Assembly (NCBI RefSeq): GCF_029227855.1
Contig: NZ_CP074356.1
Reading direction: 5' to 3' (one strand)
From: Escherichia coli
Lineage (GTDB): Bacteria > Pseudomonadota > Gammaproteobacteria > Enterobacterales > Enterobacteriaceae
Length of the DNA: 64,000 bases
The notes beneath the pieces were generated by a model. It was not told the DNA's origin. It saw only the letters and a program-made list of their open reading frames with translations, and did not search any database. Of this stretch, positions 47,812-50,214 are shown piece after piece; position 1 is the stretch's first letter; every line of letters begins with the position of its first letter. The position numbers and the translations under genes are program-made.

Positions 47812-50214
47812 TTATTGATTATCGTTAAAGTCAATAATTTCTTTCAATATTTTTTTTTCTTCATCCCAGTTATGAGGATAAAACCCCACAGATTTGCTAT
47901 TATTGAAGTAATGCTCTGAAGTATTGTTTTTTTGTTCTCCAATAGTAAAGCCAAATATATTTTTTTTTGGTATTTTGCCTATGTTTTTATAAATCCAATA
48001 TAATATACATAAGCCAGCAGATGGGGAGTGTTTGATTTTTTCGATTAATTCATAATATATTGTCGGAGGTATTATTGAAAAGGGAATATTTAAAACATCA
48101 AAATCAAGAATGAAGTCCTCAAAAGAGCTATTCCTGAATAAAGGGTTTATACCTGACTGAATTACAAGTTCAAATTGTCCATTGTAACGCCTGTCTATAT
48201 CTTGATAGTATCCAGATTTCACCCACACTGTTGTTTTTGTACCATAATCAACACTATACTCATGATCTAAATTATAGTTGTTGAATCTAATTACAATATC
48301 GAAACTATCAATAATAGACCCATTTTTGCTCCCTATCTCAACAGGCCCATTTCCAACAACCGCAAAGTTTTTATCTCTTTTTATTTTATCAATGAAATCA
48401 GCTTGTGCTTTATATATGGATTCTATTTTTTGAAACTTTTCATTGTTATTGTTTCTTCGGCTATCAATTATTGCCTCTAATAAATAATACTTTTTCAGGT
48501 TTGAGAACTCCTTTTGATGTAAGTCATACAATGATAAAGCTTTTGAATAGAAACCAGCTTCACAGTAACAAGCGCATATAAATAATTTCGCTTGTTGGCT
48601 GATTTTTTCTATATCAAGGAATAGAATGTTTAAATGATGTAATAACTCTCTTGTAATCCCTGATGTCTCCCAAAGATATTCACATAAAAAATATCTTGCC
48701 TGATGATAGGTTGGATCATTATCGATAATTTCCATTAAGTTATCTTTTATGCTTTTATCATATCTTCCTGATTGTTTATAATATTTGCAATATAAAAGTT
48801 TAATCTCTTTATTCGAAGGATGTTTCTTTATTGCATTACGGAGAAAATCAACTAACTCAAAGTAATTATTGTTTTTTCTCAATAAGGCTATATATATTTT
48901 TATGGAATTTAATTCCCATGGGTTTTGTTTCCATATGCTTCTTGCTATTTTATTATATTCAGGGGTTACACCATACGCTATTTTTTTAGTAAACTCTGTA
49001 TATGTTAAAGATATTGATGTTTTTTTTGTGTTAGAAGTAGTAGAGGTTTTTTTTACTAATTTTTCATCCTTTGTCAAACAATCACTAGTATGATTTAATT
49101 CTTTAAGATTTATTTCTTTTATTTCTTGTTCCTTGATGGATTTTTTTGCGGAAATAATTTCGTCAATTATCTTTTCTATGGATACGATCTTACCTTCTTT
49201 AAGTGAAAAATATGTGGGGTATAAAATATAAGCGCAAAAGAAAACCTCTTCTATACTTCGTTTAATATTTCTATTTCTAATAAGCCCTCTATCATCGGTT
49301 AGCCCCCAACCTGCATAAAAAGGAGTGCCAAATGTTGTAACTTTTTTTCCTCTTAATAAGGCTTCAAACCCAGTCAATGATGTGATTGTATACACATGAT
49401 CAATGTTATCTAGCAACCAACAAAGGTCAATATTTTTATCATCTAGAATATGACAAATTGAATTGCTTTTCTCTGGATTTGAAATATTTTTTCTTAATCC
49501 GTTATTAACATCTGGATGAGGTCGATAAATAATCATTGCGCCAGGGTTTTCAGCTATGGCTTTATGGAGTAAGAGTTTATTATTGATACCGTGGCTAGCC
49601 CCATATTTGATAGATTGGTCTTCCTCTACTTGACCAATTACCAATACCTTTTTTTTATTTTTGGGCAAGTTTTTTATTATCGTTGTGCCGGTGATGTTAT
49701 ATTTTGAAATCTTGTTTGTTTTTATTTTGTTTATGATTCTTCTTGCTTTTTCAACTTCATATGGATTTACTCTATAGGTTGTGATAAGTTTTTCTAGTCG
49801 GGATTCTTCTTGTGCATTATAATAAATGCTGCAATCATCAAAGCATAATGACATTGGCAGTATATGTTCTGCCCCTAGACCAATTGAACGTATAAATCCA
49901 TCCTCTACCCTAACTATTTTTAGATTCTTTAATTCTTTAATATATGGAGGTATTTCTGCGCCCCAGTTATATATTGTTTTGATATTGCTCCTTTCTATTC
50001 TTTTCAACACTTTTGTTTTGTCAGAATTATACCCAAAATAATAAACATCCGTATTCCCTATATATTTTTCAAAAACATCTCGTTTCCATGTAGAGATACC
50101 AAATGCTATACACGCTTTTCCTCGACAGTTAATGACCTTATTTCTTTGCGTGTTCAGATGTGCATCATGGAAAAAAATTTTTGGGTTTTTTATTAATTTT
50201 AAAATCTTGGTCAT
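47812..50214 (-). CDS. Capsule region-2 multidomain protein (800 aa): N-terminal KpsC/KpsS-like Capsule_synth domain plus C-terminal glycosyltransferase-like domain; candidate capsule polymerase
   Basis: N-terminal half carries the HPDV and [25 protein letters not shown] motifs also present in KpsC of this window; C-terminal part has a VVGNGP...FD.VIRFN motif; AT-rich. Confidence 0.7.
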   Translation of the reverse strand: MTKILKLIKNPKIFFHDAHLNTQRNKVINCRGKACIAFGISTWKRDVFEKYIGNTDVYYFGYNSDKTKVLKRIERSNIKTIYNWGAEIPPYIKELKNLKIVRVEDGFIRSIGLGAEHILPMSLCFDDCSIYYNAQEESRLEKLITTYRVNPYEVEKARRIINKIKTNKISKYNITGTTIIKNLPKNKKKVLVIGQVEEDQSIKYGASHGINNKLLLHKAIAENPGAMIIYRPHPDVNNGLRKNISNPEKSNSICHILDDKNIDLCWLLDNIDHVYTITSLTGFEALLRGKKVTTFGTPFYAGWGLTDDRGLIRNRNIKRSIEEVFFCAYILYPTYFSLKEGKIVSIEKIIDEIISAKKSIKEQEIKEINLKELNHTSDCLTKDEKLVKKTSTTSNTKKTSISLTYTEFTKKIAYGVTPEYNKIARSIWKQNPWELNSIKIYIALLRKNNNYFELVDFLRNAIKKHPSNKEIKLLYCKYYKQSGRYDKSIKDNLMEIIDNDPTYHQARYFLCEYLWETSGITRELLHHLNILFLDIEKISQQAKLFICACYCEAGFYSKALSLYDLHQKEFSNLKKYYLLEAIIDSRRNNNNEKFQKIESIYKAQADFIDKIKRDKNFAVVGNGPVEIGSKNGSIIDSFDIVIRFNNYNLDHEYSVDYGTKTTVWVKSGYYQDIDRRYNGQFELVIQSGINPLFRNSSFEDFILDFDVLNIPFSIIPPTIYYELIEKIKHSPSAGLCILYWIYKNIGKIPKKNIFGFTIGEQKNNTSEHYFNNSKSVGFYPHNWDEEKKILKEIIDFNDNQ

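Follow-up and report, generated by a model that had tools for sequence, protein, structure and literature searches.

An 800-residue protein of the Escherichia coli K126 capsule locus combining a GT107 module, a helical spacer and a predicted GT29-like transferase module

The DNA analysed in this study (the window) was a 64,000-nucleotide stretch of Escherichia coli containing a kps capsule locus. A gene for an 800-residue protein was located between kpsT and galE, inside the low-GC (30%) serotype-specific block of this locus. Its ORF was intact, started with ATG and covered exactly the interval given in Table 1. The MD5 values of the protein and three neighbours were identical to those of K126_9 to K126_12 in the kTYPr catalogue (PMC13171606). 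The genes kpsFEDUCS and kpsMT were present, and K126 is catalogued as group 2A. The locus is E. coli group 2 (kps, ABC-transporter) capsule type K126, which occurred in 4 out of 5,426 complete genomes. K14 was also considered as the K type and was ruled out: K14 is among the commonest types, the present locus is rare, and the MD5 values are those of K126.

Table 1. Coordinates of the 800-residue protein, its parts and the neighbouring features of the K126 locus
Feature	Coordinates	Strand	Basis
Full ORF, 800 aa, GT107-TPR-GT29-like glycosyltransferase (K126_10; WP_072617365.1)	47812..50214	-	ORF list, RefSeq, MD5 match to K126_10
N-terminal basic motif KLxKNPKxFFxD, residues 3-18	50161..50208	-	K3 and L7 near-invariant in 22 homologues
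GT107 module (predicted retaining β-Kdo transferase), residues ~35-365	49120..50112	-	Pfam Capsule_synth, KpsC structures, conserved residues
Low-confidence linker, probably flexible, residues ~375-400	49015..49092	-	pLDDT <50 for 375-400
All-helical TPR-like spacer, residues ~405-613	48376..49002	-	AF2 secondary structure, pLDDT 85-95
GT29-like (sialyltransferase-fold) module, predicted CMP-ulosonic-acid transferase, residues ~615-800	47815..48372	-	Pfam, profile, Foldseek, invariant residues
652-aa GT4 protein (K126_9)	50221..52179	-	Pfam Glycos_transf_1 E 9e-14
GalE-family UDP-hexose 4-epimerase (K126_11), with the small Cys as gatekeeper (VAECWST)	46772..47800	-	TIGR01179 E 2e-131
Hexapeptide-repeat O-acetyltransferase (K126_12), convergent with the operon	46102..46683	+	NCBIfam WbbJ / galactoside acetyltransferase-like, E 1e-18 to 1e-19
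kpsM (53059-53838) and kpsT (52373-53062), ABC exporter	52373..53838	-	NCBIfam KpsM E 3e-51, ABC ATPase matches, RefSeq coordinates
ops element GGCGGTAG, at 32 nt upstream from the start codon of kpsM	53870..53877	-	Pattern search; 1 match in 64 kb, not significant by itself
kpsS, kpsC, kpsU, kpsD, kpsE, kpsF	54248..62192	-	RefSeq annotation of a near-identical locus; ORFs

The operon with the 800-residue gene starts with kpsM and kpsT. In kps region 3, an ops element serves RfaH-dependent read-through into the serotype-specific genes, a role that the present match may have. The genes kpsS, kpsC, kpsU, kpsD, kpsE and kpsF provide synthesis of the poly-Kdo glycolipid primer, supply of CMP-Kdo and export of the polymer. 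The only CMP-sugar genes in the locus were kpsF and kpsU, both of the CMP-Kdo pathway, which was also the sole CMP-sugar pathway of related loci, and no nonulosonic-acid genes (neu, leg, pse) were found in the window or in four related loci examined. A promoter scan was uninformative in DNA of 30% GC, with 59 sites against 52 expected. Inverted repeats were also sought on the flanks of the kpsMT-region 2 block, which is inverted, and just short AT-rich chance pairs came up.

From stop to start, the 800-residue gene is separated by 6 nt from the GT4 gene and by 11 nt from galE. The N-terminal half of K126_9 is a GT4 domain (retaining hexosyl transferase; E244-x7-E252); the AlphaFold2 model of the protein had a pLDDT of 88.7 and structural matches to GT4. 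Its C-terminal ~320 residues were modelled as an alpha/beta domain, which had no Pfam match and reached a probability of at most 3% in hhalign comparisons with GT107, GT29, GT4 and TPR profiles. The N-terminal half, through its GT4 matches, took up the Foldseek list for K126_9. For K126_11, the match score was highest with human GALE, followed by the Y299C mutant of E. coli GalE (1lrk) and then the wild type.

The 800-residue protein, named "glycosyltransferase family 29 protein" in RefSeq, was modelled by AlphaFold2 with a mean pLDDT of 82.5. It consists of two modules, both predicted to be CMP-sugar-dependent and catalytic, separated by a helical TPR-like spacer, that is, three parts and not two. 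An earlier sequence-only reading had described a two-domain capsule polymerase. Its two transferase modules were recovered, a helical spacer of ~200 residues has to be added between them, and "polymerase" names an activity that the protein may have. K111 and K128 have GT29-like proteins in which the basic motif of the N-terminus recurs.

The N-terminal half matched Pfam Capsule_synth (PF05159) at residues 96–332 with an E-value of 1e-37. The published dbCAN row for K126_10 gives GT107(23-378). By sequence, the best solved structure was KpsC 6mgd (E 2.6e-57), with 6mgb at 8.9e-43. Foldseek comparison of the AlphaFold2 model with KpsC structures gave an E-value of 1e-25 for 6mgd and target TM values of 0.85–0.89. 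BLASTP against the KpsC encoded in the window gave 34% identity with its C-terminal module (E 2e-51) and 30% with its N-terminal module (E 1e-45). The likeness of this half to KpsC far exceeds chance. The module is closer to the β-(2->7) type of KpsC module: the E-value of 6mgd is better than that of 6mgb and the identity is 34% with the C-terminal against 30% with the N-terminal module of KpsC.

The key residues of the GT107 module were W84, E104, D105, Y131, K171, Y172, Q195, D199, R231, H233 and P234. All 21 key positions compared were identical to both KpsC modules. W84, E104, D105, Y131, K171, Y172, Q195, D199, H233 and P234 are the counterparts of acceptor-binding and catalytic residues of KpsC and were invariant among 22 homologues. 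Q195 and D199 (QxxxD) align with the position of D160N and D160C in 8fuw and 8fux. In KpsC, Glu66 is the base and Asp160 the nucleophile among the residues with catalytic and acceptor-binding roles (PMC10148158). The equivalents of KpsC Glu66, Asp67 and Trp42 (E104, D105 and W84) and the CMP motif R231-P-H233-P234, of the form (K/R)xHP, were all invariant; the roles of the base residues and of the CMP-binding motif have been assigned in KpsC (PMC10148158, PMC12887879). The Capsule_synth domains of GT4-Capsule_synth fusion proteins gave no match to the GT107 HMM and were too divergent for it; therefore, a comparison of W84, E104 and D105 with enzymes using hexose acceptors was impossible.

The sequence-only reading had noticed KpsC-like motifs in this half. 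HPDV (233–236), TSLTGFEALL (278–287) and a further ten-residue motif (299–308) were all located there, and the KpsC of the same locus (55515–57542, minus strand) has HPDV at 194 and 522, GFEALL at 242 and 570, and YAGWGLT at 260 and 588. The retaining β-Kdo-transferase-type domain that it proposed agreed with Pfam, BLASTP, 6mgd, Foldseek and the catalytic residues. These results support the prediction that the N-terminal half is a GT107/KpsC-type retaining β-Kdo transferase module with intact nucleophile, base and CMP-binding motifs.

TPR profiles matched the spacer weakly (TPR_19 with E 0.059, and TPR_20, in Pfam). Designed TPR proteins gave an E-value of 0.3 by sequence, and a CTPR protein gave 7e-5 by Foldseek. 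The published kTYPr table assigns SSF48452 to K126_10. A TPR profile was also found upstream of the GT29-like domain in other proteins.

The C-terminal part matched Pfam Glyco_transf_29 (PF00777) at residues 586–665 (E 1.6e-10) and 752–794 (E 0.035). The match spans just the two ends of the GT29 model, and the domain has ~190 residues against 272 in the model. Motif L, VVGNGP...D636...R643-F-N645, accounts for the first match, at positions 26–104 of the PF00777 model. The domain profile aligned VVGN.P...ID...RFN to ST8Sia3, ST6Gal1, ST3Gal1 and ST6GalNAc2 with E-values of 1e-7 to 5e-5, so that all four animal sialyltransferase subfamilies with a solved structure were matched; no GT42 structure was matched by the same profile. 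Further patterns fit motif S (P731-S-A-G734...G755-F), motif III (H768-Y-F) and motif VS (H781-N-W-D-E-E786), in a region where the HMM alignment is weak (E 0.035). N622, D636, R643, N645, P731, G734, G755, H781 and E786 were invariant in homologues of 26–53% identity. Among the 150 best representative clusters of the GT29-like domain, 129 contained H.W..E, and 38 of the 150 closest clusters were fused to GT107 modules. Foldseek with the C-terminal part found ST6GalNAc2 (6apl, 6apj) and ST3Gal-I (2wnb, 2wml) with E-values of 1.5e-5 to 2.5e-4 over 200–220 columns. The published kTYPr table lists Gene3D GT29-like at 565–800.

VVGNGP (619–624) and FD.VIRFN (637–645), from which the sequence-only reading had likened this half to CMP-sugar-dependent transferases, were present, and the Pfam, profile and Foldseek matches to sialyltransferases bear the likeness out. 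Published dbCAN data place the N-terminal half in GT107 and leave the C-terminal module outside GT29, as "GT0". Because of this "GT0" and the lack of a sialic-acid pathway in the locus, the C-terminal module is filed as GT29-like and not as a sialyltransferase. The combined evidence supports the prediction that it is a CMP-sugar transferase of the GT29 fold.

In other loci, the GT29-like module had a GT4 or GT2 partner and GT107 was absent. One stand-alone GT29-like protein was encoded among GT2/Capsule_synth and GT4/TPR genes, with a gene for a KdsB-sized cytidylyltransferase close by. Another adjoined a Dot/Icm secretion system; these neighbourhoods are too few to generalise. Among the E. 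coli K types carrying a GT29-like domain (K6, K126 and, identified by MD5, K111 and K128, the last related to K94), none has a known structure; therefore, the donor cannot be calibrated on capsule chemistry. The structure of K6 is disputed.

The gene partnership is conserved. The GT4 652-residue gene adjoined the dual-enzyme gene in K126, K6, a metagenomic cassette and Aeromonas, and elsewhere the GT4 protein and the dual enzyme were fused into single proteins. The Aeromonas homologue adjoined kdsA and kdsB in a locus without galE. Because the GT4 protein always accompanies the homologues, the 800-residue protein is probably insufficient alone.

K6_8 (781 residues) was ~37% identical to the K126 protein and shared with it the order GT107-TPR-GT29-like as well as GT4 and GalE as neighbours. 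The K6 locus differs in lacking the acetyltransferase and in having the canonical gene orientation. The two-transferase architecture and the poly-Kdo idea are already known. The kTYPr catalogue (Nat Microbiol 2026) lists the same domains for K126_10, whose sequence is identical by MD5, and describes the K6 homologue as a "dual GT29-GT107" enzyme, which would be compatible with a capsule of poly-Kdo; MALDI of the K6 cluster gave a Kdo-homopolymer signal, with Kdo only (PMC13171606).

KpsC of E. coli and Thermosulfurimonas dismutans (6mgb, 6mgc, 6mgd, 8fuw, 8fux) shares the fold at 30–34% identity, together with the nucleophile of QxxxD, the E-D pair of the base, the (K/R)xHP motif for CMP and the residues K-Y-N of the helical subdomain. 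KpsC has two GT107 modules as well as a membrane anchor at the C-terminus and synthesises the conserved linker, whereas the 800-residue protein has one GT107 module, the TPR spacer and the GT29-like module and is serotype-specific and low in GC. Kingella kingae CsaA and E. coli K13 KrkA likewise combine a retaining Kdo transferase and a second transferase in one polypeptide and make the repeat unit. The sequence-only reading had suggested a comparison with CsaA. Compared by description, the pairing of a Kdo transferase with a second transferase is common to both, but the partner module in CsaA is a GalNAc transferase, neither CMP-dependent nor GT29-like (PMC5070880). In KrkA, the Kdo module belongs to GT140, not GT107, and the partner is a ribofuranosyl transferase (PMC12887879).

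Eukaryotic GT29 enzymes used for comparison were ST3Gal-I (2wnb), ST6Gal1 (4mps), ST8Sia3 (5bo8), ST6GalNAc2 (6apl) and plant RCKT1. The sequence similarity is mainly limited to motif L. Unlike these enzymes, the bacterial module is cytoplasmic, has ~190 residues, is joined to other GT modules and has no stem with disulphides. RCKT1, which is needed for Kdo in RG-II, provides a precedent for the transfer of Kdo (PMC11288761). E. coli K15 ORF4 likewise has a sialyltransferase fold and is encoded in a kps locus that lacks sialic-acid genes; it was proposed as an α-Kdo transferase (PMC7387560). ORF4 differs in being GT42/Maf-like (Maf/CstII-like) and stand-alone.

With moderate confidence, the protein can be regarded as a K126 serotype-specific glycosyltransferase in which both modules transfer Kdo, in β linkage by GT107 and in α linkage by the GT29-like module. 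The analysis established which domains are present, that the catalytic residues and the gene partnership are conserved, and that the locus is K126; the donors, acceptors, anomeric outcome and polymer structure we infer as follows. In the GT107 module, Asp199 of QxxxD would attack CMP-β-Kdo to form a covalent Kdo adduct, and Glu104 would activate the acceptor hydroxyl, so that β-Kdo would be added with retention. Since the β-(2->7) type of KpsC is the nearest to this module, a further Kdo would most likely be the acceptor. The GT29-like module may use a sialyltransferase-like single-displacement inversion with His781 of H-x4-E as the base. Its donor would most likely also be CMP-Kdo, because the locus has no nonulosonic-acid pathway, and the product would be an α-Kdo linkage. 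From the gene content, the KpsS/KpsC poly-Kdo glycolipid would be extended by the 800-residue protein into a Kdo-rich polymer, and the GT4 protein would add α-linked Gal or GalNAc supplied by the GalE of the locus. This sugar could sit in the backbone, in a branch or as a priming residue. The polymer would then be O-acetylated by the hexapeptide acetyltransferase and exported by KpsMTED. A Kdo-containing K antigen, as the sequence-only reading had expected, would fit kpsF and kpsU as the only CMP-sugar genes and the K6 MALDI result (PMC13171606).

Against two Kdo-transferring modules stand the "GT0" label of the C-terminal module and the cover of just the two ends of the GT29 model by Pfam. 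A pure Kdo homopolymer would leave the GT4 protein and GalE unexplained, and a hexosamine-Kdo copolymer would make one Kdo module seem surplus. The 800-residue protein, like K6_8, might by itself be a Kdo polymerase in which GT107 β-Kdo and inverting GT29-like α-Kdo transfer alternate, giving a mixed-anomer poly-Kdo, while the GT4 protein and the Cys-gatekeeper GalE supply just priming or branching Gal(NAc). This proposal is tentative.

Alternatively, GT107 and GT4 alone would build the repeat, an α-Gal(NAc)-β-Kdo disaccharide of the K14, K15, meningococcal 29E and Kingella kind, and the GT29-like module would add a single residue as a "transition" primer on the poly-Kdo linker, a side branch or a chain-terminating cap. 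Known hexosamine-Kdo capsules need just a GT4 and a Kdo transferase, as in Kingella CsbA/CsbB and CsaA (PMC5070880), the dual enzyme is accompanied by conserved GalE and GT4 proteins, and other ABC-transporter capsules have dedicated transition transferases (PMC11666461). However, the signal from the cluster with the K6 homologue was that of a Kdo homopolymer and not of a hexosamine-Kdo repeat, and the Aeromonas locus has kdsA and kdsB added and galE missing. In loci where the GT29-like module has a GT4 or GT2 partner but no GT107, a main-chain sugar has to come from it, provided that those capsules are acidic. A disaccharide repeat of this kind is considered unlikely for K126.

To our knowledge, every biochemically characterised GT29 enzyme uses CMP-sialic acids, and sialylmotif L and patterns that fit motifs S, III and VS occur in the present sequence. 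Both points, and the original description of bacterial GT29 homologues as putative sialyltransferases (PMC5811610), would fit a module whose donor sugar is not Kdo but a nonulosonic acid (sialic, legionaminic or pseudaminic) from a pathway encoded outside the locus. Such a donor is very improbable, given the absence of neu, leg and pse genes from the window and the four related loci, the repeated fusion of the module to Kdo-transferase modules, the detection of Kdo only in K6 and the tie of a plant GT29 member to Kdo transfer. That the module is catalytically dead, serving CMP or polymer binding, oligomerisation or chain-length control and leaving one active site in the protein, is also very improbable: the Pfam cover of the GT29 model is partial, at ~190 against 272 residues, and in other capsule polymerases chain length is under the control of TPR and accessory domains (PMC11666461), but residues corresponding to the donor-binding and catalytic motifs are strictly conserved in the 26–53% identical homologues and in 129 of 150 representative clusters, and there are other loci in which no further candidate for an acidic-sugar transferase accompanies the module.

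Among E. coli capsule types, K126 is rare and human-associated. If its GT29-like module transfers Kdo, the enzyme class responsible for α-Kdo linkages in capsules would be identified; the question of the α-Kdo transferase was raised for K6, K15 and K16 in the 2020 K15 paper (PMC7387560). If the protein acts as a Kdo polymerase, the C-terminal module would be the first GT29-type Kdo transferase to be demonstrated in bacteria, and also the α-Kdo transferase of E. coli capsules that has long been sought. A self-contained Kdo polymerase could serve the synthesis of glycoconjugate vaccines or probes. Kdo transfer by this module would also link bacterial capsule synthesis to the family from which the sialyltransferases of eukaryotes and the Kdo transferase of plant RG-II arose.

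An open reading frame of 800 codons with an ATG start lay at 47812-50214 on the minus strand, exactly where the sequence-only reading had placed it, and all motifs quoted there were found in its product. The claim of a KpsC-like N-terminal domain agreed with a Pfam Capsule_synth match at residues 96-332 (E 1e-37). The shared motifs HPDV, GFEALL and YAGWGLT occurred twice in the KpsC of the same locus, one set per module. BLASTP against this KpsC gave 34% identity (E 2e-51) for the C-terminal module and 30% (E 1e-45) for the N-terminal module, and the best solved structure by sequence was the KpsC module 6mgd (E 2.6e-57). 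At the sequence level, the resemblance to KpsC was statistically overwhelming. The C-terminal motif, which had been likened to those of CMP-sugar transferases, fell in a Pfam Glyco_transf_29 match at residues 586-665 (E 1.6e-10), with a second, weaker piece at residues 752-794. Overall, the observation was correct and its interpretation held at the domain level.

The MD5 digests of the four region-2 proteins of the window were identical to those printed for K126_9, K126_10, K126_11 and K126_12 in kTYPr, a 2026 catalogue of E. coli K types; therefore, the locus is exactly type K126. This group 2A type was newly named in the catalogue (PMC13171606) and was rare (4 of 5,426 complete E. coli genomes). 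The InterProScan table of kTYPr lists PF05159 (96-332), a TPR-like region (428-514), PF00777 (588-665), Gene3D 'GT29-like' (565-800) and dbCAN GT107(23-378) for the 800-aa K126_10 (PMC13171606), and RefSeq annotates it as 'glycosyltransferase family 29 protein'. K6_7, K6_8 and K6_9 are 41%, 37% and 59% identical to K126_9, K126_10 and K126_11, respectively (PMC13171606), and K6_8 has the same domain order as K126_10. The kTYPr paper describes K6_8 as a dual GT29-GT107 protein consistent with poly-Kdo (PMC13171606); thus, the architecture and the Kdo implication of the sequence-only reading were already published. The protein is already catalogued, its dual nature is already discussed, and novelty is low.

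The structure of the 800-aa protein was modelled with AlphaFold2 using 22 homologues as input (mean pLDDT 82.5). In a Foldseek search against the PDB, KpsC structures came first, led by 6mgd, described as the beta-Kdo 2,7 transferase (E 1e-25, target TM 0.85-0.89); next came WbbB (GT99) and KrkA (GT140), retaining Kdo transferases that are more distant. The C-terminal part matched the GT29 sialyltransferases ST6GalNAc2 and ST3Gal-I (E 1.5e-5 to 2.5e-4, 200-220 aligned columns). The profile of this module matched all four solved animal sialyltransferase subfamilies (ST8Sia3, ST6Gal1, ST3Gal1 and ST6GalNAc2; E 1e-7 to 5e-5) and no GT42 (Cst) enzyme among solved structures. TPR matches of the helical middle were weak in both sequence profiles and structure search. 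The N-terminus carried a basic motif, KLxKNPKxFFxD, which was also present in the GT29-like proteins of types K111 and K128 and may be similar to the N-terminal ends of NeuS and SiaD, which are polysialyltransferases.

Positions of features in the window, the 800-aa protein and comparison loci
Feature	Position	Strand	Remark
Alpha/beta module	residues ~35-365		AlphaFold2 model
Linker	residues 375-400		AlphaFold2 model, low confidence
All-helical stretch	residues ~405-613		AlphaFold2 model, confident prediction
Second alpha/beta module	residues ~615-800		AlphaFold2 model
KLxKNPKxFFxD, 800-aa protein	residues 3-18 (window 50161-50208)	minus	N-terminal
KLxKNPKxFFxD protein of K111	L003 5181-8393		internal
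KLxKNPKxFFxD protein of K128	L002 4981-6516		N-terminal
C-terminal domain, 652-aa partner	50221-51177	minus	~320 residues
galE	46772-47800	minus	
ops element GGCGGTAG	53870-53877	minus	32 nt upstream of kpsM start
Hairpin	46717-46750		14-bp stem + T-run
AT-rich stretch	45137-46101		965 bp
Lipid cluster	~10960-17255		
Low-GC cassette	L004 6539-13453		
Low-GC cassette, K6-type E. coli	L007 7492-14331		
Low-GC cassette	L008 8021-12447		
Stand-alone GT29-like protein	L012 10001-11086		361 aa

For KpsC, crystallography and mass spectrometry by Doyle et al. identified Asp160 of the QxxxD motif as the nucleophile, to which Kdo becomes covalently attached (PMC10148158). Glu66 serves as general base, the acceptor is contacted by Trp42 and Asp67, the adduct is held by Tyr93, Lys133 and Tyr134, and CMP binds to a His-Pro motif (PMC10148158). 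The equivalents in the 800-aa protein were W84, E104, D105, Y131, K171, Y172, Q195, D199, H233 and P234, all invariant across the 22 homologues, with D199 aligned to the mutated D160 position of 8fuw. The GT107 module was identical to both KpsC modules at 21 of 21 positions checked. GT29 is defined by four sialylmotifs: L, S, III, and VS. The invariant residues of the GT29-like module lay in stretches that fit these motifs: V-V-G-N622-x-P624, D636 and R643-F-N645 for motif L and, in a part with a weaker profile alignment, P731-S-A-G734 and G755-F for motif S, H768-Y-F for motif III and H781-x4-E786 for motif VS. Of the 150 best representative clusters for the domain, 129 had H.W..E, and H781 probably occupies the position of the catalytic His of GT29. 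Bacterial GT29 homologues with the same four sialylmotifs were reported by Petit et al. (PMC5811610).

The window runs through hyb, gss, glc, sslE and gsp to the kps capsule locus of the E. coli chromosome; between 36100 and 63300, only 4 of 27,201 positions differed from strain MRSN346647. The minus strand carried, in this order, kpsF, kpsE, kpsD, kpsU, kpsC, kpsS, kpsM, kpsT, a gene for a GT4 protein of 652 aa, the 800-aa gene and galE, and the plus strand carried a convergent hexapeptide acetyltransferase gene. In the canonical group 2 arrangement, exemplified by the K6-type locus, kpsMT and region 2 face region 1. Here, kpsMT and the serotype-specific genes followed kpsS immediately and without a change of strand (52373-54247 vs 54248-62192), which is inverted relative to the canonical convergent layout. 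A search for flanking inverted repeats at the inverted block found none. The ops element marks the RfaH-dependent region-3 leader of kps loci, and its position just before kpsM indicated that the ops/JUMPStart leader moved together with the block. The genes kpsM-kpsT-GT4-800aa-galE read as a putative single operon, with stop-to-start gaps of 6 nt after the GT4 gene and 11 nt after the 800-aa gene. The GC content was ~30-33% in the block vs ~52% in kpsC. Rearrangements of this kind, which involve kpsMT and the K-specific genes, were already noted in kTYPr (PMC13171606).

Three further features were observed. The 88 nt that separate galE from the convergent acetyltransferase gene contain a hairpin, which could plausibly terminate the acetyltransferase gene. 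The AT-rich stretch that separates this gene from yghD had no annotated feature; in 52 E. coli genomes, it was conserved with 81-100% identity. A second lptF/lptG-like pair adjoining serine palmitoyltransferase, acyl carrier protein, epimerase and fatty acyl-AMP ligase genes (names from the RefSeq annotation of a near-identical strain) forms a sphingolipid-like lipid cluster that has no relation to the 800-aa protein.

The GT4 half of the 652-aa partner had an E-x7-E motif (E244 and E252), and its structural matches were all retaining GT4 enzymes; on this basis, it is predicted to add an alpha-linked hexose or hexosamine. The C-terminal domain of the partner was confidently predicted as alpha/beta with two Rossmann-like halves. 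Pfam gave no match for it, profile comparison did not relate it to GT107, GT29, GT4 or TPR, and its invariant residues numbered only four. It constantly accompanied the GT4 half and was joined to TPR-GT29-like modules in a few proteins. The locus GalE had Cys (VAECWST) in place of the bulky Tyr299 of E. coli GalE (...PAYWAD), and it scored highest with human GALE, then the E. coli Y299C mutant 1lrk, then wild-type E. coli GalE. Given what is established on GalE gatekeeper residues, both results suggest that it may also make UDP-GalNAc as a UDP-GlcNAc/GalNAc epimerase.

Full-length homologues with the same Pfam pair were found in metagenomes (52-53% identity) and in Aeromonas veronii and E. coli K6-type strains (36-37%); homologues of ~1,150 aa in Neptunomonas, Salinicola and others had two GT107 modules. 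One metagenomic contig kept the cassette kpsM-kpsT-GT4(653)-dual enzyme(804)-epimerase(336), convergent with kpsF, E, D, C and S. In Aeromonas, kdsA and kdsB came after the dual enzyme and GT4 protein, and galE was absent; therefore, the constant core is the pair GT107-TPR-GT29-like plus GT4-X. The GT4 and dual-enzyme cassette had ~33% GC vs 48-58% in its surroundings in all three hosts, which implies horizontal spread across genera from a shared low-GC donor. The GT29-like profile, searched against 1.84 billion cluster representatives, matched 4,645 proteins with E <= 1e-3, of which 252 had E <= 1e-30. Among the best 150 of the 4,645, 107 were stand-alone or TPR-preceded, 38 were fused to at least one GT107 module, and 5 were fused to a GT4 of the type seen in the 652-aa partner; three of these 5 also carried the C-terminal domain of the partner. 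Such Rosetta-stone fusions link all parts with one another. E. coli K128 has a 511-aa TPR and GT29-like protein alongside GT2 and an acyltransferase, and K111 has a 1,070-aa protein of GT4, middle domain, TPR and GT29-like parts. A stand-alone GT29-like protein of an uncultured bacterium adjoined a Dot/Icm-type type IV secretion gene set and could be a secreted eukaryote-like glycosyltransferase.

GT107 modules use CMP-beta-Kdo as donor, and the one in the 800-aa protein would form a beta-Kdo linkage. Since kpsF and kpsU were the only CMP-sugar genes in the locus, and no neu, leg or pse genes were found in the window or the related loci examined, we infer that the GT29-like module also transfers Kdo from CMP-Kdo. 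As it belongs to an inverting family, its product would be an alpha-Kdo linkage. This reading is supported by precedents: genetic evidence shows that a plant GT29 member, RCKT1, is needed for the Kdo in rhamnogalacturonan II (PMC11288761), a Maf/CstII-like ORF was put forward as the enzyme that transfers alpha-Kdo in K15 (PMC7387560), and alpha-Kdo was historically reported in K6 (PMC12887879, PMC7387560). There is a small but appreciable chance that the GT4 protein and GT107 module build a disaccharide repeat, to which the GT29-like module adds one priming, branching or capping residue. Use of a nonulosonic-acid donor made elsewhere was considered improbable. A non-catalytic GT29-like module was considered about equally improbable.

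For the preferred reading, in which both modules transfer Kdo, the acceptor was also considered. The GT107 module was closer to the beta-(2->7) than to the beta-(2->4) KpsC module and kept the KpsC residues holding the Kdo acceptor. Kdo is thus a plausible acceptor, a weak inference because the same residues are also catalytic. The K126 polymer may be a homopolymer of Kdo that Gal(NAc) primes or branches, or it may consist of Gal(NAc)-Kdo-Kdo repeats.
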